Below the pieces are notes generated by a model. It saw nothing but the letters and a program-made list of their open reading frames with translations, did no database searches and was not told where the DNA came from. A DNA stretch of 64,000 nucleotides. Source: Candidatus Vogelbacteria bacterium. GTDB taxonomy: Bacteria; Patescibacteriota; Minisyncoccia; Phycocordibacterales; XYD1-FULL-46-19. Made by a program: the position numbers and the translations under genes. Of this stretch, positions 2,768-56,929 are shown piece after piece. Within the stretch, counting starts at the first letter, position 1. Each line of letters starts with the position of its first letter. The stretch is taken from positions 11,855 through 75,854 of the forward strand of contig CAIRHC010000009.1 in the NCBI GenBank assembly GCA_903878275.1. Direction: 5' to 3'.

Positions 2768-3433
2768 ATGGAAAGAAAATTTTCTTTTAGTTCTGGAGAA
2801 ACCTATCATATCTATAATCGTGGAGTAAATAAACAATTAGTTTTTCTTACCGACCACGATCGATTTCGTTTTTTGATTTTACTATATCTTACTAACAATA
2901 AAAAAGAGGTTCATATTAGTAATTATCGTGGTTTTTCTTTGCAAGATTATTTTGTCCTAGAAAAAGGTGAACCTTTAGTTGAGATTGTCGCTTATTGTTT
3001 AATGCCGAATCATTTTCACCTTATTCTAAAAGAGATTGAAGATGGGGGAATATCGAAATTTATGCTTAAACTTCTAACTGGTTATGGTATGTATTTTAAC
3101 AAAAAGAACGACAGAACTGGTCCTGTTTTCGATGGATGTTTTAAAGCAAAACATGTTGCGGAAGATTCTTCTTTGGAGTATCTTCTGGCTTATGTCCACT
3201 TAAATCCGGTAAAAATAAAAGACGAAGAAAGTTGGAGTGAAAAAAAGATTACTAATTTATCTAAAGCGAAGGATTTTCTTGAATCCTATCGTTTCTCTAG
3301 CTACCCAGCTTTTTTGGGACAGAATCGACCAGAAAATAATATTTTAAATTACAGCTCTTTGTTGGATGATTTAGCTGATGGGCAAAAAGATACAAAGGAG
3401 CTGATAAAAATCTGGGCAGAGTTCGAAGAGTAA
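2768..3433 (+). CDS. IS200-like / REP-associated Y1 (HUH) tyrosine transposase (RAYT-like)
   Basis: 221 aa carrying 'YHIYNRGVNKQLVF', a HUH motif 'YCLMPNHFHLILKE', and 'RTGPVFDGCFKAKHVAEDSSLEYLLAYVHLNPV' with a candidate catalytic Tyr. The pattern matches the COG1943/PF01797 family. The gene is flanked on both sides by identical REP hairpins. Confidence 0.6.
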   Translation: MERKFSFSSGETYHIYNRGVNKQLVFLTDHDRFRFLILLYLTNNKKEVHISNYRGFSLQDYFVLEKGEPLVEIVAYCLMPNHFHLILKEIEDGGISKFMLKLLTGYGMYFNKKNDRTGPVFDGCFKAKHVAEDSSLEYLLAYVHLNPVKIKDEESWSEKKITNLSKAKDFLESYRFSSYPAFLGQNRPENNILNYSSLLDDLADGQKDTKELIKIWAEFEE

Positions 3434-3456
3434 TATCAAGGGGAGTCCTTGATATT
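3432..3456. repeat. REP-like hairpin copy 2 (identical to copy 1), overlapping the RAYT stop codon
   Basis: Exact repeat of aatatcaaggggagtccttgatatt. Confidence 0.7.
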
Positions 3457-13289: not shown

Positions 13290-13300
13290 GGGGGGGGGGG
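13290..13300. repeat. Homopolymeric G11 tract immediately upstream of a TATTAT -10-like hexamer
   Basis: Read directly: cg-ggggggggggg-tattattggggg. Confidence 0.9.
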
Positions 13301-25105: not shown

Positions 25106-25407
25106 CTTAAAAATATGGCAACAAAAAAAGCGTGCCGAGGCACCCTTTCTTTGGTAGAAGCAGCGTCTTATATGATGACAGTCTCCAGTTTTACAACCGA
25201 TTTCTCAATTGTGCCTCGAATTCTCCGAGGGAACACCAGAGCACCTTATAAGCTATTATTGCATGCTTCTAATAAGAGCATAGCACTTAAAAAGGCAAGA
25301 ATCAAGAAAAGTCAAGCAAAATCAGAGAAACTGTGGATAAAGTTTTGTCAGAGCTGAAAATGTGTTGAAAAATAAGGGGATTTAGCTAATATAACTTCAC
25401 GCAAAAA

Positions 25408-31255: not shown

Positions 31256-32755
31256 ATGATCGTTGATCGAAAGATAAAAGGTGTGTTGTTGTCAATTTTC
31301 ACTCTGGTGCTTTTTAGTTGGAGTGGAGTAGCTTTTTCGGCTGATCTTAAAGTTGTTACCAATAAAACAAATTATCAAGTTGGTGATATCGTTTCAGCGA
31401 GAATTATCTTGTCTTCAGCCGATCAATCGGTCAATGCCGTGTCAGGGACTTTGAAATTTCCGACGGATAAACTGGAAGTGACTTCACTTAGTAAATCTGG
31501 CTCGGTCATCAATCTTTGGGTGCAAGAACCGGATTTTTCAAATAGCACTGGTGAAGTCAGTTTTGAGGGTGCAATTTTAAATCCCGGTTTTACTGGTGCA
31601 TCTGGTCAATCGTTGTCAGTGAATTTTAAAGCCAAAAAAGCTGGCACGGCGACAATATCTTTTTCGACAGGTTCAATTTTGGCAAATGATGGTCAGGGTT
31701 CGAGTATTCTCAAAAAACTTGGTCAAACTTCTGTGACTATCGGCAGTACCAAAGCTGTTATTGAGCCGGCGATCGAAGTAGAAAAACCGGTTGAAGTTGA
31801 AACAACAATTGCGCCCAAAAAAGAAACGAAAAATCAATATCCTGATGTGCCAAGTATTGTTTCGCTGACCAATCCTGATCAAAGTCTTTGGTACAGCATT
31901 AATTACCCGCAGTTGTCTTGGACGTTACCGGAAGACGTGACTGATGTCAGTCTGATTTTTGATAACAAGGAAAAAACAATTCCGCCGACCAAATCGCAAG
32001 GTTTGTTTTCCTCTTATGTCGATGGCAAAAGCGTTGCTGATGGTAATTGGTATTTTCACTTAAGATTTAAAAATAAAATTGGCTGGGGACCAGTCGGGCA
32101 TTACAAATTAAATATCGACACAAAAGAACCGGAGCGCTTTGAGGTGAACGAAGTGAAATTGGGGCAAGGTTCGGCGGGTGCGCGGTTTGTTTTTGACGGT
32201 ACTGATGCTTTGTCTGGAATTGATCATTTTGAATTTCAAGTTGATGATTCGGAACCGCAAATTATCAACGCTGATTCAGTCAAAACTTTTGATACGCCAG
32301 ATTTGCGAGCCGGGCGACACATTCTCACCGCACGAGTGATTGATCGAGCGGGGAATTTGGTGGTGAGAAAATTAACCTTTGCCATTGATCCAGAATTGAC
32401 CGGTTCATTTGCCGTGCGAGTGGGTGACAATTTAATTTTGGTCTTATCAGTTTTGGTGCCGTTAATTATTTTGTTGATGGCGCTGATTTATATTTTACTA
32501 ATCAGCTGGAAAAAGCTATCAACAATTAAACGGCGTTTGCGAAAAGAGGTGCGAGAAGCCGAAGATGGCCTACATCAAGCCTTTGATTTGATTAAAGAAG
32601 ATTTGCAGGTACAAATGGAATTGTTGAAAAAAGCCAAAACCAAACGAAAATTGACGGCGATAGAAACAAAAATAATGAAAAATATCAAAGCCGATTTGAA
32701 TGAAGCCGAGAAATTTATTAAAAATGAAATTGAAGATATTTCCAAACAAATTTAA
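31256..32755 (+). CDS. Paralogue of the previous gene: cohesin-like domain, single TM, C-terminal coiled coil
   Basis: 'VGDIVSARIILSSADQSVNAVSGTLKFPTDKLEVTSL...FEGAILNPGFTGASGQSLSVNFKAKKAGTATI' is about 60% identical to the 29404 N-domain. TM 'LILVLSVLVPLIILLMALIYILLI'. Confidence 0.5.
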   Translation: MIVDRKIKGVLLSIFTLVLFSWSGVAFSADLKVVTNKTNYQVGDIVSARIILSSADQSVNAVSGTLKFPTDKLEVTSLSKSGSVINLWVQEPDFSNSTGEVSFEGAILNPGFTGASGQSLSVNFKAKKAGTATISFSTGSILANDGQGSSILKKLGQTSVTIGSTKAVIEPAIEVEKPVEVETTIAPKKETKNQYPDVPSIVSLTNPDQSLWYSINYPQLSWTLPEDVTDVSLIFDNKEKTIPPTKSQGLFSSYVDGKSVADGNWYFHLRFKNKIGWGPVGHYKLNIDTKEPERFEVNEVKLGQGSAGARFVFDGTDALSGIDHFEFQVDDSEPQIINADSVKTFDTPDLRAGRHILTARVIDRAGNLVVRKLTFAIDPELTGSFAVRVGDNLILVLSVLVPLIILLMALIYILLISWKKLSTIKRRLRKEVREAEDGLHQAFDLIKEDLQVQMELLKKAKTKRKLTAIETKIMKNIKADLNEAEKFIKNEIEDISKQI

Positions 32756-35700
32756 AATCTGGAAAATCTTGGTGATTTTTCTGTTGCTGGTAATTTTACC
32801 CGTTGGCTTTTTGGTAAAAGCTTCGACTGTTCCGGCGATAATTAGTTATCAAGGACGTTTGGCTGACGCTGATGGCAATTTGCTCGGTGGCGCTGGGACC
32901 GATTATAATTTCAAGATTTCTTTTTGGACTAGCCCGACGGTTGGTGCTGGTTCGCGTGTTTGGCCATCGTCTGCTCCGACGGCTTTCGTCTCGACCGTTC
33001 GTCACGGCTTATTTAATTTAAATATTGGCGATACGACTGGTGGTTATCCTGATGCACTTGATTATGATTTTTCAAGTAATGATAAAATTTATTTGCAAGT
33101 TGAAGTTTCTAGCGGCGGCGCTTACGAGACATTATCGCCACGCCAGCTGATGACCAGTACGCCGTTTGCGTCACTGGCGGGTGCGGTGTCTGGTTCTGGC
33201 GCTTCGACGATGGGCTCGCTTACTGTGACTGGAAATTCCACTACGACCAATGCCACGACCACAAATTTATATGCCAATTCTAGTATAGGTTTGAATGGTC
33301 TTTATGTTAACAATTGGTCTGATTTAGCACCTTATCTTCCGACAGCGGCTGGCTGGGGAACATCAAGCGATAGTATAAATTTTAATTCTTTATTAGATGC
33401 TAAAGATAAAGGATATTTTTTCGCTTCTTCTTCGGCTGATGTCTGGGGCGCGTCGAAAGGTTATCTAACTTCATATTCTGAAACCGATCCTGTTTGGACT
33501 TCCGAAAAAGCTGGTTACCTCACGACAGGTACTGCGGCTTCTACTTATCTTACTTTGTCTGCCTCTACCTCATTACCTTATCAGCCGGTTGGAAGTTATT
33601 TGATTACCGAATCTGATCCGATATTTATGGCTGCCTCGTCCTCGTTTCTAACTTTAAATAATTGGTTTGCCACTACTACTTGGGGCGGGTCATCATTAAG
33701 TGTTGGGACCAATAATACTTATGGCTCGCTAACTGCGATGGGCGGGACTACTTTTTCTACTGTTCCACCTTACGGCACAGCGTCGATCGGTCATATTTCT
33801 CATACTTCTGGTTGGGATGGTAGCGGGTTTTTGTTTAGTAATTCTTCTGTTGGTTCAAATGCTTTTTCGATGGTTTACAATGTCGATAAAGCTTGGTTTG
33901 GGGGAATTACTGATAGTTCTGGTGTCGCTTGGATGACGCTTGATGCTGGAGGTTTGCAATCATACGGTACTGTTTCTGGTACTAATTTATCCGGTACAAA
34001 CACTGGTGATGTTACTTTGGCGAACAATTTAAATGGCTTAACAATTTCTAATCAAGTTTTAACCTTGGGTCTAGCCTCAACCAATGCTACTGGTACTCTT
34101 TCTGCTACCGATTGGAATACTTTCAATAATAAACAGCCGGCTGGTAATTATCTCACTTCATATTCAGAGACTGATCCTGTTTGGACTTCCGAAAAAGCTG
34201 GTTATCTTACCACTGGTGCTGCCGCTTCCACTTATTTAACTATTTCGGCTTCCACCTCAATTAGGTCTCTGCCAAATCTCTCCATTACCAAATCTCAAGT
34301 TTCTGATTTTGGCTCACCGCTTTATTCATACTCTGAAACCGATCCACTATACGCTTCAGCTTCATCTTCTATCTTAAGATTTGGCACAACCTCTGATGTT
34401 TTGACTGAAGGTGCGACAAATAAATTTTACACTGACACTAAAGTTGCAAATTACATAAATAGTTCCTCGACGCTTGGTTTTCAAAACTTTACGGCTGGTC
34501 ACGGCACCACCACAAATTTTTATGCTGGCACTAGTCTTGGTTTGAATAGTCAATATATTAGCAATTGGTCGGAACTCGCGGCTTTTTTGCCGACTGTAAC
34601 CGGATGGAGTACTACGAGTGATAGTGTGAATTGGCAAGATAATTGGAATTCGGTAAAAGGGGATTACTTAACTATCTCCAGTGCCGGCTCTACTTATCTA
34701 CCACTTTCAGCGTCCACTTCTTTAGCTTATGTTAAAACCGAAACTGATCCGGTGTGGACGTCAGAAAAATCTGGTTATCTCACTACTGGTCTGGCAGCTT
34801 CGACATATCTTACTTTGGCCGCCTCTACTTCTTTAGCTTATCAACCAATCGGAAATTATCTCACTTCATATTCAGAAACTGATCCAGTTTGGACTTCCGA
34901 AAAAGCCAGTTATCTCACTACTGGTGCCGCCGCTTCCACTTATTTAACAATTTTGGCTTCCACCTCAATTAGGTCTCTGCCAAATCTTTCAATTACTAAA
35001 TCTCAAGTCTCTGATTTTGGCTCACCGCTTTATTCATACTCTGAAACCGATCCCGTTTTTACCGCGTGGAACAAAACGACCGGTATCACTATCTCCGAAT
35101 CGCAAATTACAGATTTGCAAGACTACCTAACTACCGAATCTGATCCGGTCTGGACATCAGAAAAAGCTAGTTATCTCGCTACTTCGGGCAATGGTGGCTC
35201 GTTGACTGGTTTGACTAAGACTCAAGTTGGTTTATCAAATGTTGACAATTATTCTTCAACCACGCTCGAAGTTTTGTCGGCGACCAAACTAAAAACGGCA
35301 CGTACTATAAATGGTGTATCGTTTGATGGTACGGGAAATATTACGGTGACTGATGCTGGTTACACTGCCGCTTCGTCATCGATTCTACGTTATGGCACAA
35401 CAACAGATGCCTTGACCCAAGGCTCGGTCAATAAATTTTATGCGCAAGCTTTGGTGTGGAATGATATTTGGGCATCCTCAACTTTAGCTACGACATTAAA
35501 CAATTCTGCCACTGCTTACGGTTGGGGCAATCACGCCGATGCTGGTTATCTTACCACCGGTGCCGCCGCTTCCACTTATTTAACTATTTCGGCTTCCACC
35601 TCAATTAGGTCTCTGCCAAATCTTTCAATTACCAAATCTCAAGTTTCCGATTTTGGCTTACCGCTTTATTCGTATACTGAAACTGATCCGGTCTGGAATG

Positions 35701-38700
35701 CTACGAAGGGCAATTATCTTTTGTTGGCTGGTGGTACGATGACTGGTGATTTGACGATTAGTAATAAAAATTTGACGGTCACAGGCACCTCCACTTTAGC
35801 GACTACGACCATCACCAATCTTTCTGGAAATATTATTACGAGCAATGATGTTCGCACGGCGATTACCGATCTCGATACTCGTCTTTATAATATGCAAAAC
35901 ACCACCAAAGAAATGACCGGTTTTCCAAACCGTACCGATACTTCTATTTCTTTCAATAACATAAATCGCAATTTCACCATCACTGGTACTAATTTCAAAA
36001 TTTACAGCGCCGGCAAAGAATATGTCAAAAATACCGAATCGATTCAACTTGCCAATACAAACGGTGTCCAATTTGTTTATTATTCGCCAGTTACTTTAAC
36101 TTTGAGTACTAGTACGACCGTTTGGAATTTTAATGATGGTACTGTTCAGATTGCTACCGTGCACTGGGATGGCACGACTGGTTTGCTTGGCGAGGAACGT
36201 CATGGTCTGACAATGGACAATGCCACACACGAATATTTGCATCACACCGTGGGTACGCGTTATCAATCTGGTCTGACTGGCACTTTTAATACAAACAATA
36301 CTTTGTCTGTTACGGCTGGTTCAATTGATGATGAAGACATCGAAGATTCTGTTGCTTTGACTACGACAACAAGAATAATTTATCATCTTAACGCTACTAA
36401 TTTTACCCAATCGGCAGTCGGCACGAGTTTCTTTGATAAGACCTGTACTGGTTCGAATCTTTGTTATGACAACGGCACCGGTAAAGTGGCAGCGACTGGT
36501 AATAATTATGTTGCCTATTGGATTTTTGCAACCAACGATGCTTCAAATGGTGTCTATGTGTTAATGGGACAAAGACAAGATACAAGTTTGGCAAATGCCC
36601 AAGCGAACGCCACATATTCAAGTTTGACTTTGGGTAACTTACCATTCGCTGAAATGAAATTACTTTATCGTTTGATTGTGAGAAACAATGCTGGTAATAC
36701 TTTGGATACTAGTGATTATCGATCGGTTTCAAACCTGCCGTCTGGCACTTATGTCGCGACTGCTCACAATGTTTTGACCGGTCTTGATTATGCTTCGTCT
36801 GGTCATACTGGTTTTGCCGGCACAGGGGTAGATAATACTTTTACCGGTCACGATATTTTTGCTTCTTTGTTTGCTACCAATGCTTCGAGTACTAATGCTA
36901 CCACCACAAATCTTCAAGTGGTCGCCACCTCGACGGTCGGTGGTTTAAGTATTGGTTCGTTGTCTGGAATCTTAAAAGCGGTGGCGGGTGCCGTGACCAC
37001 TTCTTTGATTGACTTAGCCAATGACGTCACCGGTGTGCTTGGTGGCACTCACGGTGGTACGGGTCTTTCGACTGTTACCAACAACGAACTCCTAATCGGC
37101 TCGACCGGAAATACTTGGCTACAAATTGCGACTTCATCACTGGGAATGCTCACGACCAATGTCGCCGAAGGCACTAGACTTTATTATACCGATGTCCGAG
37201 CTCGTGGCGCAATTTCTTCGGGTGCACTTGGTCTGACTTACAATTCTGGTACAGGGGCTTTTTCCTTGACGACTGATTATAATATTCCGTTGACAGCTTC
37301 GACGACAAATTGGAATACAGCGTTTAATTGGGGCAATCATGCTGATGGCGGTTATCTGAAAACTTCAGGTGGTACAATGTCTGGAATATTAACCATAAAT
37401 AACAATCTAAATTCTACTGGTACTTCTACTTTGGCGACGACAACTATGTCTTATGGCTCTAAGATTGGTTATGGTAATGAATATTTTACAGTAAATCAAT
37501 ATCCGGTAGCGGGGAGTATCCTTAGCGGGACTATTCCGATAATTAGCTTTAACAGCCCCAACGCTTGGGGTTCTGATGTGGGAGGTTTCGCTGATTCCTT
37601 GGCTATCTTAGAAACGGGTCAGGCTGATGATCCTGTCGGTATTAATTTTGTCGCCAGTGATTTCGCCAACAACTTGAATGTCGGATCGTTAACTTATGCC
37701 ACAACCTCTAATGTTTTTGTTTTATCTAATGCCAACGGGAATAATGTTGACCTGTCTTTGGGTGGAGGTGTTTTTAGTGGCAGCGTTGTGTCTGACGTCT
37801 ACAAAATTAATGGTCCGGCTAACATCAATTCTTTCCTTGCCACTGACGGTGCTGGTCAAATTATCGCAACGACAACACCAGTTCTTTATGGAGCAACTAC
37901 TGACTCATGGAACACTGCTTATTCTGATCGCTTAAAATGGGATGGTGGCTCCAGCGGTCTTAACGCTTCTACTGCGCGGACCTCTCTGGGGTTAGTAATT
38001 GGTACTAATGTCCAAGCTCAAAACGCGGGGCTTTCAGATATCGCCGGTCTGACATTGACGGACGGTAATTTTATTGTTGGCAACGGTTCTAACTGGGTCG
38101 CTGAAAGTGGAGCGACCGCGCGGACGTCAATTGGTTTGGGTAGTGTGGAAAATACAGCACTCTCTACTTGGGCTGGTTCGTCTTATCTCACTACGGCTGG
38201 CAATCTTACTGCGACCGGTTTGCAAGTAAATGGCAATTCGACTACGACTGGTTTTAGCACTTTAGCAACAACCACCATCTCTCGTTTAGATGTTGGGAAC
38301 ACGACTCTTTTTTATTCCACTCCGATGGGTAGTTTGATGAGTCAGAAAATAACTTCAGCTTTTGCGGGTCTGACTGGTTTTGTTAATACCACTGGTGCTG
38401 GTGATTGGGTTATGATTATGCCGCCTGGAGATTTGTGGCCAGGAGCTCCAGAAGTTGATGCTTCCGTAGGTGGAGTTACGGGTAATTTTTCTTTGACCTC
38501 AACTGCCCCTGATACTTTAGGTATGTTTTATGGTAATCAATGGAACGGTTCCTATTCTGGAGATTTGTCAGGCTTACTTCAGGGGATTTCTAATAACTAT
38601 GCAACTAAGATTGAATCTGGAGCGACGGTTAGTACTCTATCCGGGCTGTCTAGTTTTTCTTCAGATGTTGAAAATCAGGGAGCAATTACCGGAGATTTTA

Positions 38701-39647
38701 CAAATTTCTTAGTCAACAATGTATCTGGCGGTGGCACTTTAAGTGGTAATTTTTATGGTTTAAAAATTGGTGGTGCAGGCGAGATGGGCGGAACTCAAAA
38801 TTACTCCATTTATTCCGATGGCGGTTTAAATTATTTTGCTGGCAATGTTGGTATCGGTGTAGAAGTGCCTACTCATCCTTTAGAATTTGCAGGCGGTGCT
38901 TATTCTGATGGTCTTACTTGGAGTAATGGCTCTGATCGCAACATCAAAGAAAACTTTGTTACTCTTGATTCGACGGAAATTTTAAATAAAATAAATCAAT
39001 TACCAATCATGCAGTGGAATTATAAAACACAGGAGGCGACTACCACTCATATTGGACCAATGGCACAAGATTTTTACGCTTTGTTTGGTGTTGGCGGTTC
39101 GGATAAATCGATTTCCACAATTGATCCATCGGGCATTGCTCTTGTCGGTATCCAAGCGTTGAGTGAAAAAACGAAAACGCTCGAAGACAATCTGAAAATA
39201 CTTTTGGCAATGTCTGGCAACTGGGGCATTGGGGCGAGCGGGGAATTGATGCTCGAAAAAATCACGACCAAAAAAGCGGAAGTGCAAAATGATATTCAAA
39301 TTGGTTCGCCAGAAAAAAGAATCGGTATCACTTTGTTTGACGAACAAACCGGCGAGCCGTATTGTTTGAAAATTTCTGGCGGGCAAACTAAGACGACAAA
39401 TGGAAAATGCTCGGATGCTGACGGTGATAGCGTTGGAAGTGGTGGGACAAGTGCTGGTAGTAATCAGGCGGGAAATAATTCATCGTCTAGTGGTAATACG
39501 GCGAGTAGCACCGATGATCAGAGTAATTCATCGACAACACCAGAAGTAGTGCCAGAAAATCCAACACCAGAGACAACTCCCGCACCAGAAGTTTCTTCTC
39601 CACAAGATGGACAAACTCCTCCCGCTGATTCGGCACCGGCATCTTAA
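32700..39647 (+). CDS. Giant (2315 aa) surface fibre-like protein: N-terminal anchor, shared N-module, tandem S/T-rich repeats, C-terminal intramolecular-chaperone (peptidase S74, phage tail-fibre type) domain and a P/T/S-rich tail
   Basis: N-terminal 'ISYQGRLADADGNLLGG...' module. Repeats 'YLTSYSETDPVWTSEKAGYLTTGAAASTYLT'. C-terminal 'GNVGIGVEVPTHPLEFAGG...SDRNIKENFVTLDSTEILNKINQLPIMQWNYK...GPMAQDFYALFG...IALVGIQAL' with the SDxRxK hallmark. The alternative start at 32724 overlaps the upstream stop. Confidence 0.7.
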   Translation: MKPRNLLKMKLKIFPNKFKIWKILVIFLLLVILPVGFLVKASTVPAIISYQGRLADADGNLLGGAGTDYNFKISFWTSPTVGAGSRVWPSSAPTAFVSTVRHGLFNLNIGDTTGGYPDALDYDFSSNDKIYLQVEVSSGGAYETLSPRQLMTSTPFASLAGAVSGSGASTMGSLTVTGNSTTTNATTTNLYANSSIGLNGLYVNNWSDLAPYLPTAAGWGTSSDSINFNSLLDAKDKGYFFASSSADVWGASKGYLTSYSETDPVWTSEKAGYLTTGTAASTYLTLSASTSLPYQPVGSYLITESDPIFMAASSSFLTLNNWFATTTWGGSSLSVGTNNTYGSLTAMGGTTFSTVPPYGTASIGHISHTSGWDGSGFLFSNSSVGSNAFSMVYNVDKAWFGGITDSSGVAWMTLDAGGLQSYGTVSGTNLSGTNTGDVTLANNLNGLTISNQVLTLGLASTNATGTLSATDWNTFNNKQPAGNYLTSYSETDPVWTSEKAGYLTTGAAASTYLTISASTSIRSLPNLSITKSQVSDFGSPLYSYSETDPLYASASSSILRFGTTSDVLTEGATNKFYTDTKVANYINSSSTLGFQNFTAGHGTTTNFYAGTSLGLNSQYISNWSELAAFLPTVTGWSTTSDSVNWQDNWNSVKGDYLTISSAGSTYLPLSASTSLAYVKTETDPVWTSEKSGYLTTGLAASTYLTLAASTSLAYQPIGNYLTSYSETDPVWTSEKASYLTTGAAASTYLTILASTSIRSLPNLSITKSQVSDFGSPLYSYSETDPVFTAWNKTTGITISESQITDLQDYLTTESDPVWTSEKASYLATSGNGGSLTGLTKTQVGLSNVDNYSSTTLEVLSATKLKTARTINGVSFDGTGNITVTDAGYTAASSSILRYGTTTDALTQGSVNKFYAQALVWNDIWASSTLATTLNNSATAYGWGNHADAGYLTTGAAASTYLTISASTSIRSLPNLSITKSQVSDFGLPLYSYTETDPVWNATKGNYLLLAGGTMTGDLTISNKNLTVTGTSTLATTTITNLSGNIITSNDVRTAITDLDTRLYNMQNTTKEMTGFPNRTDTSISFNNINRNFTITGTNFKIYSAGKEYVKNTESIQLANTNGVQFVYYSPVTLTLSTSTTVWNFNDGTVQIATVHWDGTTGLLGEERHGLTMDNATHEYLHHTVGTRYQSGLTGTFNTNNTLSVTAGSIDDEDIEDSVALTTTTRIIYHLNATNFTQSAVGTSFFDKTCTGSNLCYDNGTGKVAATGNNYVAYWIFATNDASNGVYVLMGQRQDTSLANAQANATYSSLTLGNLPFAEMKLLYRLIVRNNAGNTLDTSDYRSVSNLPSGTYVATAHNVLTGLDYASSGHTGFAGTGVDNTFTGHDIFASLFATNASSTNATTTNLQVVATSTVGGLSIGSLSGILKAVAGAVTTSLIDLANDVTGVLGGTHGGTGLSTVTNNELLIGSTGNTWLQIATSSLGMLTTNVAEGTRLYYTDVRARGAISSGALGLTYNSGTGAFSLTTDYNIPLTASTTNWNTAFNWGNHADGGYLKTSGGTMSGILTINNNLNSTGTSTLATTTMSYGSKIGYGNEYFTVNQYPVAGSILSGTIPIISFNSPNAWGSDVGGFADSLAILETGQADDPVGINFVASDFANNLNVGSLTYATTSNVFVLSNANGNNVDLSLGGGVFSGSVVSDVYKINGPANINSFLATDGAGQIIATTTPVLYGATTDSWNTAYSDRLKWDGGSSGLNASTARTSLGLVIGTNVQAQNAGLSDIAGLTLTDGNFIVGNGSNWVAESGATARTSIGLGSVENTALSTWAGSSYLTTAGNLTATGLQVNGNSTTTGFSTLATTTISRLDVGNTTLFYSTPMGSLMSQKITSAFAGLTGFVNTTGAGDWVMIMPPGDLWPGAPEVDASVGGVTGNFSLTSTAPDTLGMFYGNQWNGSYSGDLSGLLQGISNNYATKIESGATVSTLSGLSSFSSDVENQGAITGDFTNFLVNNVSGGGTLSGNFYGLKIGGAGEMGGTQNYSIYSDGGLNYFAGNVGIGVEVPTHPLEFAGGAYSDGLTWSNGSDRNIKENFVTLDSTEILNKINQLPIMQWNYKTQEATTTHIGPMAQDFYALFGVGGSDKSISTIDPSGIALVGIQALSEKTKTLEDNLKILLAMSGNWGIGASGELMLEKITTKKAEVQNDIQIGSPEKRIGITLFDEQTGEPYCLKISGGQTKTTNGKCSDADGDSVGSGGTSAGSNQAGNNSSSSGNTASSTDDQSNSSTTPEVVPENPTPETTPAPEVSSPQDGQTPPADSAPAS
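33460..35700 (+). repeat. Intragenic tandem repeats: four copies of a ~150-195-nt unit, three of them near-identical (about 34150-34345, 34861-35055, 35545-35690)
   Basis: Near-exact nucleotide repeats read directly, e.g. '...gaaaaagctggttatcttaccactggtgctgccgcttccacttatttaac...caattaggtctctgccaaatct...'. They encode '...TSEKAGYLTTGAAASTYLTISASTSIRSLPNLSITKSQVSDFGSPLYSYSETDP'. Confidence 0.7.
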
Positions 39648-44052: not shown

Positions 44053-46386
44053 ATGGCAAAAAAACAAAAAATCGTGAAAAAAACAGTGATTTCGCTTAAA
44101 AATATTAAGAAGCGTGATGGCACACTTGTTCCTTATGACACAAAAAAAGTCGCTAATGCTATTTTCAAGGCAATGAGGATTGTTGGCGAGGGTGATGAAG
44201 GTGCTTCGGTCAAAGTCGCTGATTCGGTTTTTGCTAATTTGCTAGTAATTAAGCAAGAAAAAGGTAAAGATTATGTTCCGACCGTTGAAGAAATTCAGGA
44301 CGTCGTGGAAAAACAATTAATTTTACATAAATTTGTCGCCACTTCCAAAGCGTACATTCTTTATCGTGAAAAAAGATCAGAGCTTCGTCGCCAGCGCGGT
44401 GATGTGCCGCGAAAAGTTCGCGACTTGGTCATCGAAAGTAAAAAACATTTCCGCAATCAATTATCGGAGTTTGTTTATTACACGACTTACTCGCGTTGGA
44501 TTCCAGATGAAAATCGTCGCGAGACTTGGGTGGAAACCGTTGATCGTTATAATGATTTTATGCGTGAAAATCTCGGCGAAAAATTAACAAAAAAAGAATA
44601 CGCGGAAATTCGTGACTATATGATGGATATGAAAGCGATGGGTTCGATGCGTCTTCTCTGGGGTGCCGGTACCGCCGCCCGTGCGACCAATGTTTGTGCC
44701 TACAACTGTTCGTTTATTGCTCCGACGGCTTGGCGAGATTTTGGCGAAGTGATGTATGTGCTTATGTGCGGTTCTGGGTGTGGCTATTCTGTCGAACGAC
44801 AACATGTTGAGCAATTGCCGATTATCAAAAGACAAACGGGCGAAAAATTAAAAACACATATGGTCGCCGATAGTAAAGAAGGTTGGGCGGACGCGTTTAT
44901 TCTTGGTTTGGAAACTTGGTCAGCGGGTAAAGATATTGAGTTTGATTATACCGGTGTCCGGCCACAAGGTTCACGTCTGAAAACAATGGGTGGCCGCGCT
45001 TCTGGTCCAGAACCACTGATCAATCTTATTGATTTTGCTCGCGCTAAAATGTTGTCACGACAAGGTCGTCGCCTGACGACGATCGATGTCCACGATCTTA
45101 TGTGCAAAACCGGTGAAGTGGTGGTGATGGGCGGTGTTCGTCGCAGCGCGCTGATTTCTATCTCTGATTTAGATGACGTGGAAATGAAAGAAGCTAAAAA
45201 TGGTCAATTTTATATCAGTCACCCCGAGCGAATGATGGCAAACAATTCTGTCGTTTACAACGAAAAGCCAACCATTGATCATTTTCTTGAAGAATGGCTA
45301 AACCTAATCAAAGCCGGCTCTGGTGAAAGAGGAATTTTCAATCGTGGCGGTTTGGAAAAACAAATTCCGGCTCGACGTTGGCCTGGTTTCAAAGAAGACT
45401 CATATAGTTCTGGTCTCAATCCGTGTGGGGAAATTGTGTTGAAGTCAAAACAATTTTGTAACTTGTCCGAAGTCGTTGCTCGCAAAGAAGACACGGTCAA
45501 AGATTTGGAAGATAAAGTCCGCATCGCGACCATCCTTGGCACCTACCAATCTTCACTGACCAAGTTTCCTTATCTATCGGCGGAATGGAAAAAGAATAGT
45601 GAAGACGAAAGATTGCTCGGTGTGTCAATTACCGGTCAGTGGGATTGTCCAGCTTTGCGTAATCCCGAGACGATGAAAAAATTGCGAAAGGTTGCTATCG
45701 ATACCAACAAAAAATATGCCACGCGTTTTGGTATCAATCCATCAATGGCGATCACCTGCGTCAAACCATCGGGCAACGGTTCGCAATTATTTGATTCATC
45801 ATCTGGTTGTCATCCTCGTCATGCCAAATATTATATTCGTCGCGTTCGCATTGAAAGACACAGCCCGATTTTTATGATGCTTAAAGATATGGGCGTGCCG
45901 TATCATCCAGAAGTTGGTCAGACTGATTCCAATGCCAATACTTATGTTTTGGAATTTCCGATTAAAGCCCCAGATGGTGCGGTGACGAAAAATGATTTGG
46001 GTTCAATGGATCAGCTTGAATATTGGAAGATGTTGAAAGAAAATTATACTGAACACAATCCGTCAGTCACCGTGTCGGTCAGCAATGAAGACTGGATTAA
46101 GGTAGGGAATTGGGTTTATGAAAATTGGGATATGGTCGGTGGTTTGTCGTTCTTGCCGAGAAATGATCACGTTTATAAATTGGCACCATATGAAGAAATT
46201 ACTAAAACTCAATACGAACACGCCATAAAAGATTTTCCTGAAATAGATTTCTCTAAAATTGTTTTGTACGAGTATGAAGATGTTACGACTGGTTCGAAAG
46301 AGCTCGCTTGCTCGGCGGGTAAATGTGAAATTGATTTTTCTTCAGCTGGTGCTGATGCGGTGGAGCAGAAGGAAGATAAAAAGTAG
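44053..46386 (+). CDS. nrdJ: Ribonucleotide reductase, class II (adenosylcobalamin-dependent, monomeric-type), with an N-terminal ATP-cone
   Basis: ATP-cone 'KKRDGTLVPYDTKKVANAIFKA...'. Active-site 'NPCGEIVL' and 'CNLSEV' are typical of class I/II RNR. The single-chain 777-aa architecture favours class II, but class Ia alpha is not fully excluded. Confidence 0.55.
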   Translation: MAKKQKIVKKTVISLKNIKKRDGTLVPYDTKKVANAIFKAMRIVGEGDEGASVKVADSVFANLLVIKQEKGKDYVPTVEEIQDVVEKQLILHKFVATSKAYILYREKRSELRRQRGDVPRKVRDLVIESKKHFRNQLSEFVYYTTYSRWIPDENRRETWVETVDRYNDFMRENLGEKLTKKEYAEIRDYMMDMKAMGSMRLLWGAGTAARATNVCAYNCSFIAPTAWRDFGEVMYVLMCGSGCGYSVERQHVEQLPIIKRQTGEKLKTHMVADSKEGWADAFILGLETWSAGKDIEFDYTGVRPQGSRLKTMGGRASGPEPLINLIDFARAKMLSRQGRRLTTIDVHDLMCKTGEVVVMGGVRRSALISISDLDDVEMKEAKNGQFYISHPERMMANNSVVYNEKPTIDHFLEEWLNLIKAGSGERGIFNRGGLEKQIPARRWPGFKEDSYSSGLNPCGEIVLKSKQFCNLSEVVARKEDTVKDLEDKVRIATILGTYQSSLTKFPYLSAEWKKNSEDERLLGVSITGQWDCPALRNPETMKKLRKVAIDTNKKYATRFGINPSMAITCVKPSGNGSQLFDSSSGCHPRHAKYYIRRVRIERHSPIFMMLKDMGVPYHPEVGQTDSNANTYVLEFPIKAPDGAVTKNDLGSMDQLEYWKMLKENYTEHNPSVTVSVSNEDWIKVGNWVYENWDMVGGLSFLPRNDHVYKLAPYEEITKTQYEHAIKDFPEIDFSKIVLYEYEDVTTGSKELACSAGKCEIDFSSAGADAVEQKEDKK

Positions 46387-46414
46387 AGCGAAGTTATTAT
46401 TTTTTGAAACCACA

Positions 46415-46440
46415 GAAAACCCCTCCAGCGAGGGGTTTTC
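46415..46440 (+). terminator. Hairpin gaaaacccctc-cagc-gaggggttttc after nrdJ
   Basis: 11-bp stem read directly; no long T-run follows. Confidence 0.4.
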
Positions 46441-46529
46441 CTCTGCTTCGTATCTGGCCGTTCCGCCTTTGTCGCTAAAGCGACCTAAGACAAAAAAGGC
46501 GGAAACCATGCCGGCCAGCCCTCCGCAAG

Positions 46530-46817
46530 GGTTTCAAAAAATAACAACCTTCGCTCTTGTGGTGGCGGAAGGTTGAAGAGACTATGCCAATTCGTCCTGC
46601 GAAAGGGTTTTTAAACGTCACAAGCTAAACCTTGATGGCGGTGGGAGGTTGGGCTGGCGACAATTCCGCAAGTTTACCCGACCCAATTTTTGCTGTGCAA
46701 AATTTGGGCGGGGGTTTTTAAACGAAACAAGTCTCGCCTTAGTAGCAAGAACGTTCGGTTGTTGTGAAGGTTTAAAAACGTTGCAACTAAATACCTTGTG
46801 GTGGCGGAAGGTAGGGT
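46530..46817 (+). repeat. Non-coding array of 3-4 degenerate ~45-100-nt structural repeats, each forming a hairpin with a conserved G-rich loop (GTGGTGGCGG / GATGGCGGTGGG)
   Basis: Units: gggtttcaaaaaataacaACCTTCgctcttGTGGTGGCGGAAGGTT; gggtttttaaacgtcacaagctaaACCTTgATGGCGGTGGGAGGTT; ggtttaaaaacgttgcaactaaaTACCTTgTGGTGGCGGAAGGTA. Stems differ but stay complementary. A longer fourth variant lies at 46713-46770. Confidence 0.45.
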
Positions 46818-46912
46818 GAAAAAATTGACTATATTACTAACTTATGATATTTAAAATAGATTTGTTTTGTGTTGAAAATCGGTCAATTTTGAAATGAAAG
46901 GAGTTTTGTGCA

Positions 46913-47293
46913 ATGAAAAGCGTAATCTCGGAAGCTAAAACATGGGAAGCCGATGTGACTATTACGTGCTATCTACGCTTGTCTGGTAACTCTTACACTC
47001 TGTATTTGGAAGTGTGCGATGACCACATGGAAGCAGAACACTGTTCCTTTTGCGGAGGGAAAGAATCCGCTCTGGTTGATGGCGTTTTATTCAATTATTC
47101 CTATCAACTTCTTCACATTGATAAAAATACTTATATCGATGTCCCTCTTGAAAGTCGTGAGGGGAAAAAAGTGGCGAGATTTTTTTTCTCGGCTATTTCT
47201 AAAGTTTTGAGGCGGCCCGCTTGCGGAAATTGTTATTCAAAACAGGATAAGGAATTCAAGAAGCTTTTGGAAAGGAGTGGTATAACGGTATAA
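46913..47293 (+). CDS. Hypothetical Cys-rich protein (126 aa; CxxC...CxxC, possible zinc ribbon)
   Basis: Good SD aaaggag 11 nt upstream. 'CSFCGG' and 'CGNCY' cysteine pairs. Confidence 0.5.
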   Translation: MKSVISEAKTWEADVTITCYLRLSGNSYTLYLEVCDDHMEAEHCSFCGGKESALVDGVLFNYSYQLLHIDKNTYIDVPLESREGKKVARFFFSAISKVLRRPACGNCYSKQDKEFKKLLERSGITV

Positions 47294-47376: not shown

Positions 47377-47686
47377 GACCTGTTATTGGGCAATTGCTCT
47401 GATGTAAAAGTCGGGGAGGAAAGTCCGAACACTTACTTCTAATTTATTAGAGGTTAAAAAGGTAGCGGGTAACGCCCGCCTGGGGTGACCCACGAGGTGC
47501 GAACAGAAACGACCCGGTTAAGTCCGGCTGAAACGGCAAAATCCTTACCAGAGTGCAAGGCCGTGCTCTATTTATAGAGAGTGCCGCTAGAGGCAAATAG
47601 TAATATTTGTCCCAGATAAATAATTGCCGTCCTAAACACCGCAAGGTGTAGGATACAGAATTCGGCTTATAGGTAGCAGGTTATCA
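47377..47686 (+). ncRNA. rnpB: RNase P RNA, bacterial type-A-like; boundaries are approximate (+/-15 nt)
   Basis: Universal P4 strands 'GGGGAGGAAAGTCCG' (47411-47425) and 'ACAGAATTCGGCTTAT' (47655-47670). 'GGGTAACGCCCGCCTGGGG' and 'CCCACGAGGTGCGAACAGAAAC' match E. coli 'GGUAACGCCUGGG' / 'CCCACGACCAGUGCAACAGAGA'. Proposed P1: gacctgttatt (47377-87) pairing with ggtagcaggtt (47672-82). The track ORF 47447-47644 inside it is spurious. Confidence 0.75.
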
Positions 47687-47717: not shown

Positions 47718-47756
47718 GTACAAATATTACGAGGACCGTCCTTGTGCTATTTAAAA

Positions 47757-47781
47757 AATATCAAGGGGAGTCCTTGATATT
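47757..47781. repeat. REP-like hairpin copy 3 (aatatcaaggggagtccttgatatt), followed by a T6 run
   Basis: Exact third copy, in the same loop orientation as copies 1 and 2. Confidence 0.7.
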
Positions 47782-54258: not shown

Positions 54259-54291
54259 ATAAAAGAGTATATCATTTTAAATTAAAAAATA

Positions 54292-54402
54292 ATACTCGTC
54301 ATCCTCTTATTTAGGGTACAGATTTTTCGAAGCTTGAAAAATCCTGAAGTTCTCAGCTCGACAGCTTCGAAACCCCCTAAATAAGAGATGGACTCGTGTC
54401 AT
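54292..54402. repeat. Nested inverted-repeat element: outer arms atactcgtcatcctcttatttaggg / ccctaaataagagatggactcgtgtcat enclosing inner palindromes (ttcgaagcttgaa ... agcttcgaa)
   Basis: Read directly. The ~25-nt imperfect arms are separated by 58 nt that contain further dyad symmetry. Confidence 0.5.
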
Positions 54403-54453
54403 TTTTTAATTTAAAATTAGGGAGTTGGGAGAGGGAAAGAAGATAATTTTAAT

Positions 54454-55660: not shown

Positions 55661-56929
55661 ATGTCCGACCTTTTTGATCAGAATTTATCTCAAAAATCAT
55701 CACAGACGCCTTTAGCTGATCGGATTAGACCACTCTCTTTGGCTGATTTTGTCGGTCAGGACGAAACGGTGGGTGAAGGCAAGCTTTTGCGTCAGCTTTT
55801 GGAAAAAGACGATGTCCCCTCGCTTATCCTTTGGGGCCCTCCCGGGTGTGGTAAGACCACTTTGGCGAAGATTGTCGCGAATATTACCGGTGCTGATTTT
55901 ACGACTTTTTCGGCCGTGACTTCTGGCGTAGCAGATTTACGAGTGGTGATTAAAAAAGCCGAAGATGCACGAAAATTTTATCATAAAAAAACTATTCTTT
56001 TTATCGACGAGATTCATCGTTGGAATAAAGCCCAACAAGACGCACTCTTACCGTATGTCGAAAATGGCGTGGTGACTTTGATCGGTGCAACGACCGAAAA
56101 TCCGAGTTTTGAAATAAATTCGGCGCTTTTGTCGCGCTGTCGAGTTTTTGTGTTTAAGTAACTCGACAAGATAGCGATTGGAAAAATTTTAACGCGCGCC
56201 TTGAAAGATAAAGAATTTGGCTTGGGTCAGAATAAAATAAAAATTGGCAAAGATACGCTGGATTTTTTAGCCAAAGCTTCCAATGGTGATGCCCGTAATG
56301 CTCTGAATGCCCTAGAGCTTGCCGTAAAAACAGGGGCAAAAGACGAAACAGGGAAAATTGTGGTTGATAAAAAACTGGTGAAAGAATCACTACAAAAATC
56401 GCATTTACTTTATGACAAAAAAGGGGATGAGCATTACAATATAATTTCGGCTCTGCATAAATCTTTGTGTGGTAGCGACGCCGATGCGTCTTTGTATTGG
56501 CTTGGGCGGATGCTGGTGTCTGGCGAAGATCCACTTTATGTGGCTCGTCGTTTGGTACGCTTTGCGAGCGAAGATGTTGGGCTGGCGAATTCACAGGCTC
56601 TAACCCAAGCCGTGGCGGGCTATCAAGCTTGTCATTTTATTGGAATGCCGGAATGTGAAGTGATTTTGGCGCAAGTGGTGGTCTATCTGGCTAAATGCAA
56701 GAAAAGCAACGATCTTTATACGGCTTATCTCGAAATGGAAAAAGATGTGAAAGAAACAATGGACGAGCCGGTGCCGATTCATCTTCGCAACGCTCCGACA
56801 AAATTGATGAAAAACCTTGGTTTTGGTAAGGACTATAAATATTCGCCAGATTTTGGCTATAAGGAAAAACAGGAATATTTGCCCAAGAGTTTGAAAGGTA
56901 AAAAATATTTGAAAAATGACCTCAAATAA
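55661..56929 (+). pseudogene. rarA: Replication-associated recombination protein A (RarA/MgsA, AAA+ ATPase) interrupted by a single in-frame TAA at 56159-56161
   Basis: The two track ORFs (55661-56161 and 56201-56929) are in the same frame. The translation reads '...[31 protein letters not shown]...' continuously across the stop. Walker A 'GPPGCGKTTLA' is upstream; 'NGDARNALNALELA' is downstream. Confidence 0.6.

Follow-up and report, generated by a model that had tools for sequence, protein, structure and literature searches.

A conserved element of about 82 nt lies in a rapidly evolving, palindrome-rich spacer downstream of nrdJ in a member of the Patescibacteria

We analysed the intergenic tract that follows nrdJ in a 64,000-nucleotide stretch of a Candidatus Vogelbacteria contig (hereafter, the window). 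nrdJ (44053–46386) encodes a B12-dependent ribonucleotide reductase with ATP-cone and RNR domains and ends with the stop codon TAG at 46384–46386. The tract separates it from a gene for a 126-aa protein (46913–47293), which is followed by rnpB, a 70-aa MerR/HTH gene on the opposite strand, and genes for a TPR protein, MurJ and LepA. The window falls in the Patescibacteria; for nrdJ, the closest named relatives are Candidatus Vogelbacteria and Paceibacterota metagenome-assembled genomes. A first-pass annotation had described the tract as degenerate structural repeats with a conserved G-rich hairpin loop and had suggested selection on RNA structure. Our comparison with relatives pointed to a fast-evolving spacer reaching from the nrdJ stop codon to an ORFan gene and rnpB, and not to an array of structured-RNA repeats kept by selection. 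Within it lies one conserved element of about 82 nt, designated u2, among three degenerate copies (u1, u3 and u4). The coordinates are collected in Table 1.

The spacer was compared in three genomes, that is, the window and two related loci, L033 and L035. Among 5.8 billion proteins, these two loci held the only nrdJ genes at least 90% identical to that of the window (94% for L033 and 90% for L035). Their homologous spacers, of 526 nt in L033 and 365 nt in L035, are followed by a different small gene and then by rnpB. The four-fold degenerate sites of nrdJ differed by 48–55% between any two of the three genomes (Jukes–Cantor distance 0.8–1.0). With about 50% of the silent sites diverged, unconstrained DNA is expected to be unalignable, and most of the spacer sequence outside one block was unalignable between genomes. 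The block occupies 46579–46660 in the window, 2611–2692 in L033 and 3432–3513 in L035; L033 and L035 were 80–83% identical to the window over this block and 91% identical to each other. A 32-nt core inside it was invariant.

A covariance model of the block gave one strong match in each genome (96–105 bits). Its weak paralogues (11–23 bits) were a full-length match to u1 at 46503–46576 (11.3 bits, E 5.5), a partial match within u3 at 46711–46736 (12.4 bits, E 2.6) and an inverted partial copy at 3320–3350 in L035 (23 bits). The window and the 41 related loci searched (397 kb) yielded no further match. By BLAST, u1 was 60–71% identical to the L033 and L035 units; CGACAATTCCGCA of u3 also occurred in L035 (3511–3523), and u4 had no orthologue in either genome. 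Both u1 and the inverted L035 copy had decayed inside the core. Since u2 is the sole strong copy in each genome, we take it to be the conserved element and u1, u3 and u4 to be genome-specific degenerate copies. Conservation in relatives, the lack of which would have refuted the first-pass annotation, was found for this one unit only.

The tract was absent from a sister clade whose nrdJ is 77–81% identical; there the nrdJ terminator is directly followed by rnpB in the opposite orientation. It was not found by nhmmer or blastn at the nrdJ loci of 32 GTDB species representatives (identity up to 74%), nor did it have a blastn match in collections of phages and plasmids. A search with the neighbouring TPR protein brought in no additional close relatives. 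The core pattern was found in JGI metagenomes on the L035 contig only and in no viral contig. The one match at the GTDB nrdJ loci, 27 nt long (L008), corresponds to an RNase P RNA helix, P3, and did not exceed chance level.

The fold of the whole tract was more stable than that of shuffled sequences (z −4.8 on the + strand and −6.0 on the − strand). These high scores come mostly from long lineage-specific inverted repeats (46385–46411 with 46530–46557, and others), which were absent from the first-pass annotation. The minimum free energy of the conserved unit itself was close to that of dinucleotide shuffles in the three genomes (z +0.1, −1.3 and −1.0 on the + strand; −0.4, −1.2 and +0.6 on the − strand), and the 37 nt around the core gave no significant signal on the two strands (z −1.0 and +0.45). 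RNAalifold returned a consensus elongated hairpin of 21 pairs on the + strand (−14.7 kcal/mol) and 12 pairs on the − strand (−6.4 kcal/mol). Among the three orthologues, which are too few for a covariation test, none of the 21 predicted + strand pairs had a two-sided change. One-sided changes kept wobble pairs on the + strand only (U-G/U-A and G-U/G-C) and became A-C mismatches on the − strand. These results do not show that the conserved element is a structured RNA. Because the extreme conservation comes without a fold or covariation signal, it looks like a constraint on the base sequence of the core, which is under strong purifying selection.

The features from which the repeats had been recognised are present in the tract. 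We found the three hairpins, their G-rich loops and the 'GGGTTTTTAAAC' leaders, as well as a terminator-like hairpin, CCCGACCCAATTTTTGC-TGT-GCAAAATTTGGGCGGGG, at 46677–46713, followed by TTTTT. The leader family GGGTTTTTAAACG...ACAAG has four copies (46529, 46605, 46712 and 46768; 70–100% identity), of which the 20-nt leader reads GGGTTTTTAAACGTCACAAG with variants; GGGTTTTTAAACG with up to two mismatches was not enriched across the window. Within the 64 kb, exact copies of the loop word GTGGTGGCGG are confined to 46559 and 46798. They belong to hairpins 1 and 3, which are private to the window genome and without orthologues in L033 or L035. An 18-nt exact repeat, 46556–46573 and 46795–46812, has an estimated chance expectation of about 1e-6 in 526 nt and therefore represents a genuine duplication. 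The tract was also correctly described as non-coding: no ORF was conserved or matched a family, and the indels between relatives were not multiples of three.

The reading of these features as conserved RNA structure was not supported. The stems had been called different but complementary, which overstated the case: all three share the words ACCTT/AAGGT, and the outermost pair alone differs on both sides (A-T versus T-A). In addition, the 5' strand of hairpin 1 is another ACCTT copy, located 7 nt upstream of the homologous one. The loop, supposedly fixed, varies between genomes in the one unit that is conserved (GATGGCGGTGGGAGG versus GGCGGCGATGAGGG, mostly G/A changes), and this unit had neither covarying pairs nor a fold signature. 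A tandem array of structured RNA modules, working as small RNAs (sRNAs) or as a protein sponge through conserved, functional G-rich hairpin loops, would fit the presence of three similar hairpins within 270 nt, of which 1 and 3 are moderately more stable than shuffles and one terminal pair changes on both sides. It would also fit the local cluster of two-layer G-quadruplex motifs in the tract (G2–4, loops of 1–3 nt); motifs with such short G-runs are frequent on the G-rich + strand of the whole window. However, hairpins 1 and 3 lack counterparts in the relatives and their 18-nt identity suggests a recent copy, hairpin 2 is not stable (z +0.7), GGA is missing from the conserved unit of L033 and L035, and Tandem Repeats Finder (TRF) detected no array. 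The extra copies decay and are not maintained, and we regard such an array or protein-binding repeat as very improbable. The earlier finding is a real sequence pattern, with degenerate repeats, but for the most part it was generated by tandem and inverted duplications within a spacer that evolves fast.

The inverted duplications are most evident at the start of the spacer. In each genome it begins with a quasi-palindrome of 167–173 nt. The stop codon of nrdJ is where the left arm starts in the window and in L035, whereas the L033 arm starts 5 nt past it. The arms lie at 3321–3353 and 3454–3487 in L035 (including 27 bp at 100%) and at 2377–2400 and 2525–2547 in L033; the arm sequences are unrelated between genomes and occupy the same position. 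In forced arm-to-arm alignments, 17–20 of the outermost 20 positions were Watson–Crick (18 in the window), and this fell to about 50–60% further in (about 55% in the window). Each palindrome contained 1–12 wobble-type mismatches, both strands together, versus 4–14 others, so that wobble was not clearly enriched; G-U made up 0–4 of the 45–66 pairs in the predicted palindrome folds. The left arm in L035 is an inverted copy of positions 26–56 of the conserved element (E 0.0025), and the right arm in the window belongs to u1. In both the window and L035 the arms flank the terminator-like nrdJ hairpin, so they would rarely be on one transcript if that hairpin terminates.

From this pattern, we infer that the long helices are DNA-level palindromes generated by outward template switching. 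Template switching is a known mutational mechanism by which quasi-palindromes are extended or corrected. The palindromes would extend outward from the terminator hairpins, with the newest parts at their outer edges, and their growth would have stopped where nrdJ would be overwritten, selection on nrdJ limiting the left side. Local DNA instability may have yielded both the large quasi-palindromes and the degenerate tandem copies u1, u3 and u4, the carriers of the G-rich-loop hairpins. The likeness to quasi-palindrome template switching lies in near-perfect Watson–Crick repeats around a hairpin, with the outermost part the most perfect and wobble not enriched; here the mechanism is read from the pattern, and the halt at the nrdJ stop codon is our interpretation.

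Palindromes were also encountered elsewhere. In L033, positions 2693–2822 form a 130-nt palindrome of two inverted CATTCCCGCGAAGGCGGGAATC-type hairpins, which occurs only in L033 among the relatives; these hairpins resemble the ATTCCC-N8-GGGAAT repeats of other bacteria. Four short-read contigs (L034, L036, L037 and L048) end 20–52 nt after the nrdJ stop codon. Three of the four end in or right after a perfect palindrome (e.g. CACCGGAATTCCGGTG), and L034 ends within the left arm of the long inverted repeat. Contig breaks at palindromes imply that, in several lineages, the sequence just behind nrdJ is rich in palindromes and difficult to assemble. Within the window, an inverted repeat lies between lepA and a DivIC-like gene (54274–54316 and 54375–54417; 43-nt arms, 84% complementary, 58 nt apart), and it may reflect the same kind of quasi-palindrome growth.

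A mobile palindromic repeat cluster of the REP/BIME, BOX or MITE type, inserted after nrdJ, would explain a mosaic of direct and inverted modules with long hairpins right after a stop codon. The inverted doublet of hairpins in the L033 spacer and the assembly breaks just after nrdJ in relatives would also agree with it. REP/BIME and pneumococcal BOX elements are likewise intergenic, often located just after stop codons and built of direct and inverted units that form long hairpins; however, a genome carries tens to hundreds of dispersed copies of them. The present case is a single locus; none of its modules recurs in the 64 kb or the 41 related loci, and there is no match in phage, plasmid or viral contigs. 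The arms are wholly different between close relatives at the same position. No target-site duplication was visible at 46385/46557, and the ORFs scanned included no RAYT or transposase gene. We consider an insertion of this kind very improbable. The suggestion of a decayed REP-like cluster was right about the mosaic of direct and inverted modules but found no support in copy number. The CAAGG/CCTTG hairpin to which it refers, ATATCAAGGGGAGTCCTTGATAT (three copies), is a different element without relation to the tract.

We then considered how the conserved element might act. On the + strand, a T-run or terminator follows it within 0–55 nt in all three genomes. In L033 and L035 this is a T-run 0–15 nt after the element, and in the window it is T2, a hairpin with U5. 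L033 and L035 lack T2 and show TTTT or TTTTTT in its place; on the − strand, T2 has no U-run after it. A conserved segment hence lies between the stop codon and a + strand T-run or terminator, as would be expected of a regulatory RNA derived from or embedded in the 3' untranslated region (3'-UTR). Together with the better consensus fold and the one-sided changes described above, this leads us to lean weakly towards the + strand. Our preferred interpretation, to which we give somewhat less than an even chance, is that one conserved element of about 82 nt, read by its base sequence and probably contained in the nrdJ 3' transcript, lies amid DNA-level duplications. A protein or another nucleic acid would recognise the core through its base sequence, and not through a stable fold of its own. 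Most likely it would act as + strand RNA, being part of the nrdJ 3' transcript and serving there as a regulatory segment of the 3'-UTR or giving rise to a 3'-UTR-derived sRNA, and the transcript would end at the T-run downstream of the element (T2 in the window). A further claim, that the element with its 32-nt core represents a regulatory RNA new to science and confined to one lineage of Paceibacterota, is possible but doubtful. Such an RNA would be either nrdJ 3'-UTR-derived or a convergent antisense-strand sRNA with C-rich loops, the core contacting a target RNA or protein.

Several observations weigh against this interpretation. The searches found no promoter from which a + strand RNA could start, and the element lies downstream of the terminator-like hairpin of nrdJ (it starts 4 nt past this hairpin in L033 and L035), so + strand transcription requires read-through. 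The preference for the + strand may be only an effect of G+U composition, since 7 of the 21 pairs in the + consensus fold are wobble pairs and the unit does not fold better than shuffles. A hairpin with a U-run also occurs within 4–8 nt after the core on the − strand in the three genomes, which fits an antisense-strand sRNA equally well. A search for targets, in which k-mers and duplex energies of the core, the G-rich part and their complements were compared with 49 translation-start regions, gave none above shuffles. Moreover, 32 invariant bases are long for a typical protein site or sRNA seed, and the template-switch origin of the palindromes is deduced from their pattern, not observed.

Two serious rivals to a role in the nrdJ 3' transcript emerged. 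One is a small RNA from the − strand, convergent with nrdJ, in which C-rich 5' sequence with the loops CCGCCACCAC and CCUCCCACC would precede the invariant 32 nt and an intrinsic terminator; its C-rich or CCCUUUC sequences would pair with G-rich ribosome-binding sites. The terminator would be the − strand hairpin just mentioned, which reads CAACCUUC...GAAGGUUG followed by UUAUUUUUU in the window (−11.5 kcal/mol, z −4.0) and AGGAAAAGCCAG...CUGGCUUUUCCU in L033 and L035. The hairpin of L033 and L035 is symmetric, though, and is required anyway as the terminator of nrdJ, and the A-run in the window is inherited from the repeat leader. Two of the genomes have a −10-like box on the − strand where the tract ends on the right (TATAGT at 46833 in the window and TATAAT at 2831 in L033), but L035 has no promoter-like − strand site, and neither strand has a convincing promoter adjoining the element. 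The left quasi-palindromes are 4.5–8.5 kcal/mol more stable on the − strand; against this stand the weaker consensus fold of the element on that strand, the A-C mismatches left by one-sided changes and the lack of an outstanding target among the 49 translation-start regions. We judge this sRNA rather unlikely.

The other rival is a DNA-level binding or recombination site that marks the left border of a variable small-gene slot between nrdJ and rnpB. The slot holds mutually unrelated genes, for 126 aa in the window (46913–47293), 88 aa in L033 (2907–3173) and 57 aa in L035 (3684–3857). Each has a strong ribosome-binding site and its own hairpin downstream, and none matched Pfam, PHROGs or NCBIfam; the 126-aa protein had no homologue among 5.8e9 proteins. 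Past these genes, conservation returns at the rnpB promoter (TGTTATAAT). Such a border site would be in keeping with this gene turnover, with a core conserved as base sequence without a fold signal, with surrounding helices nearly free of wobble pairs and with the inversion of rnpB in the sister clade. However, the ORFs scanned near the tract included no recombinase, transposase or integrase gene (the neighbours are the MerR/HTH protein, the TPR protein and MurJ), the core has no direct repeat at the opposite border, and the extra unit copies were not maintained. Silent divergence of about 50% also makes a special site unnecessary for gene turnover and spacer randomisation. A border site is therefore unlikely in our view.

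The tract was also compared with known systems. Enterobacterial 3'-UTR-derived sRNAs of the CpxQ, SroC and DapZ type likewise consist of a short conserved segment between a stop codon and a terminator, with the rest drifting and without a promoter of their own. In contrast, the host here is a Patescibacterium, and the invariant run of 32 nt is longer than the usual seeds. Csr/Rsm-type sponge RNAs resemble the tract in having several hairpins with purine-rich loops within the length of a single RNA; in L033 and L035, however, the conserved unit reads GGCGATGAGGGTTGGGG without GGA, the motif that defines such loops, multiple hairpins occur in the window only, and no CsrA was seen. T1 and the corresponding hairpin of L033 and L035, with their A-tract/stem/T-tract arrangement, are similar to the bidirectional intrinsic terminators of convergent genes, and in the sister clade such a hairpin separates nrdJ from the convergent rnpB; a terminator nevertheless leaves the adjoining invariant sequence unexplained.

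The element is unclassified and matched none of the known families tested. Rfam at gathering thresholds gave no match in 46387–46912, including tmRNA, SRP RNA, 6S, cobalamin and other riboswitches and small ribozymes; at E values up to 10 there were only chance-level matches to terminator-like hairpins. ARAGORN found no tRNA or tmRNA in the tract. The first-pass annotation had likewise found no known RNA family. Likeness to 16S rRNA (positions 890–965) was equal to that of shuffles (z −1.7 to +0.2 versus E. coli 16S). Likeness to an rnpB 3' end, as from a remnant of an ancestral convergent rnpB, was not above chance (z −1.8 to +2.7 versus six rnpB genes), and Rfam gave no partial match to either RNA. 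Hammerhead-like CUGAUGA/GAAA words were not retained in the window and had no Rfam match. Type III toxin–antitoxin repeats and a CRISPR array were rejected, as TRF was empty, the units are about 68% alike and the downstream gene is an ORFan without a family match. No convincing sigma-54, ECF, dif, parS or attC consensus was seen by eye in the tract.

The four ORFs over the tract (105, 56, 55 and 48 aa) were not conserved and had no family match where tested. A 14-aa frame (MPIRPAKGFLN..) from 46584 is open in three genomes; it showed no synonymous change in 11 shared codons, where about half were expected to change, and is followed by one-base indels. It has no ribosome-binding site in L033 or L035, and its conservation was not attributable to protein-coding constraint. 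A +1/−1 recoding signal at AAA-AAG-TAG plus a helix was rejected because the downstream frames were not conserved.

Patescibacteria (CPR) have tiny genomes and, to our knowledge, almost no described regulatory RNAs. A non-coding segment that stays invariant despite about 50% silent turnover is a candidate regulator beside two essential genes, nrdJ and rnpB. If it were a new regulatory RNA, it would be, as far as we know, among the first sRNA-type regulators defined in this group. With three genomes known to carry this candidate, its wider importance is limited for now. The tract also calls for caution in sequence-only scans, as terminator-centred palindromes and local duplications can mimic 'structured RNA repeats' and inflate folding z-scores.

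Table 1. Features of the spacer between nrdJ and the 126-aa gene (window coordinates).
Feature	Position	Strand	Description
Left outer arm of the 173-nt quasi-palindrome	46385–46411	.	Pairs with 46530–46557; starts inside the nrdJ stop codon
T1, terminator-like hairpin of nrdJ	46415–46440	+	GAAAACCCCTC-CAGC-GAGGGGTTTTC; 11-bp perfect inverted repeat
H2, central hairpin of the quasi-palindrome	46461–46504	.	TTCCGCCTTT...AAAGGCGGAA; 10-bp perfect arms; in folds of both strands
Unit u1, degenerate full-length copy of the conserved element	46503–46576	+	Holds the right palindrome arm (46530–46557) and hairpin 1
Hairpin 1	46546–46552 / 46568–46574		AACCTTC / GAAGGTT; −13.6 kcal/mol, z −2.3 versus shuffles
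Unit u2, conserved element ('master' unit), about 82 nt	46579–46660	+ (favoured)	Holds hairpin 2 (46628–46650) and the G-rich 3' part
Invariant core, 32 nt	46584–46615	.	ATGCCAATTCGTCCTGCGAAAGGGTTTTTAAA; identical in all three genomes
Hairpin 2	46628–46633 / 46646–46650		AACCTT / AGGTT; −4.9 kcal/mol, z +0.7 versus shuffles
Unit u3, degenerate copy with T2 inserted	46659–46768	+	CGACAATTCCGCAAG ... GGGTTTTTAAACGAAACAAG; repeat family D1; model match 46711–46736
T2, intrinsic-terminator-like hairpin + TTTTT	46677–46719	+ only	17-bp arms, −21.4 kcal/mol, z −3.8, U5; inside u3
Unit u4, degenerate copy	46765–46822	+	Repeat families D1 and D3; holds hairpin 3 (46792–46813)
Hairpin 3	46792–46797 / 46808–46813		TACCTT / AAGGTA; −8.8 kcal/mol, z −2.6 versus shuffles
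Promoter-like region and ribosome-binding site of the ORFan gene	46826–46912	+	TTGACT at 46826; outside the repeats

T1 was not flagged by a consensus terminator scan because its T-run sits within the stem. Its counterpart in L033 and L035 is the hairpin AGGAAAAGCCAG...CTGGCTTTTCCT. H2 was absent from both of these genomes. At the right end of the tract, −10-like hexamers occur on both strands at 46830–46852, and the ribosome-binding site of the 126-aa gene, GAAAGGAG, lies 8 nt upstream of its ATG.

Downstream of the slot, rnpB encodes a class A RNase P RNA (47378–47685, + strand; 119 bits with the Rfam model). It lies on the + strand in the window, L033 and L035. In the sister clade (L039, L040, L043, L044 and L046) it runs towards nrdJ from the other strand and the two genes have a common terminator, indicating that rnpB was inverted between clades. 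Large additional hairpins are inserted in the rnpB genes of L035 and L039. The neighbouring 70-aa MerR/HTH gene is retained in all relatives. GC skew across the window gave no terminus or origin signal.

Further observations were made elsewhere in the window. The hairpin ATATCAAGG-GGAGT-CCTTGATAT is present in three identical copies (2712–2734, 3431–3453 and 47756–47778). Every copy comes immediately behind a gene or rnpB and has T-rich sequence downstream, which suggests a terminator used repeatedly or a small dispersed repeat; it bears no relation to the tract. A RarA/MgsA-type AAA+ ATPase is broken into two adjacent ORFs (55661–56161 and 56201–56929), with the AAA domain in one and AAA_assoc_2 and MgsA_C in the other, which could be due to a frameshift, a pseudogene or a sequencing error. 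A DUF3800-V RNA motif was detected at 25156–25270 on the − strand (60 bits), and a run of 11 G is located at 13290–13300. Finally, a 2315-aa protein (32700–39647) contains a Peptidase_S74 (endosialidase chaperone) domain, the usual setting of which is phage tail fibres.

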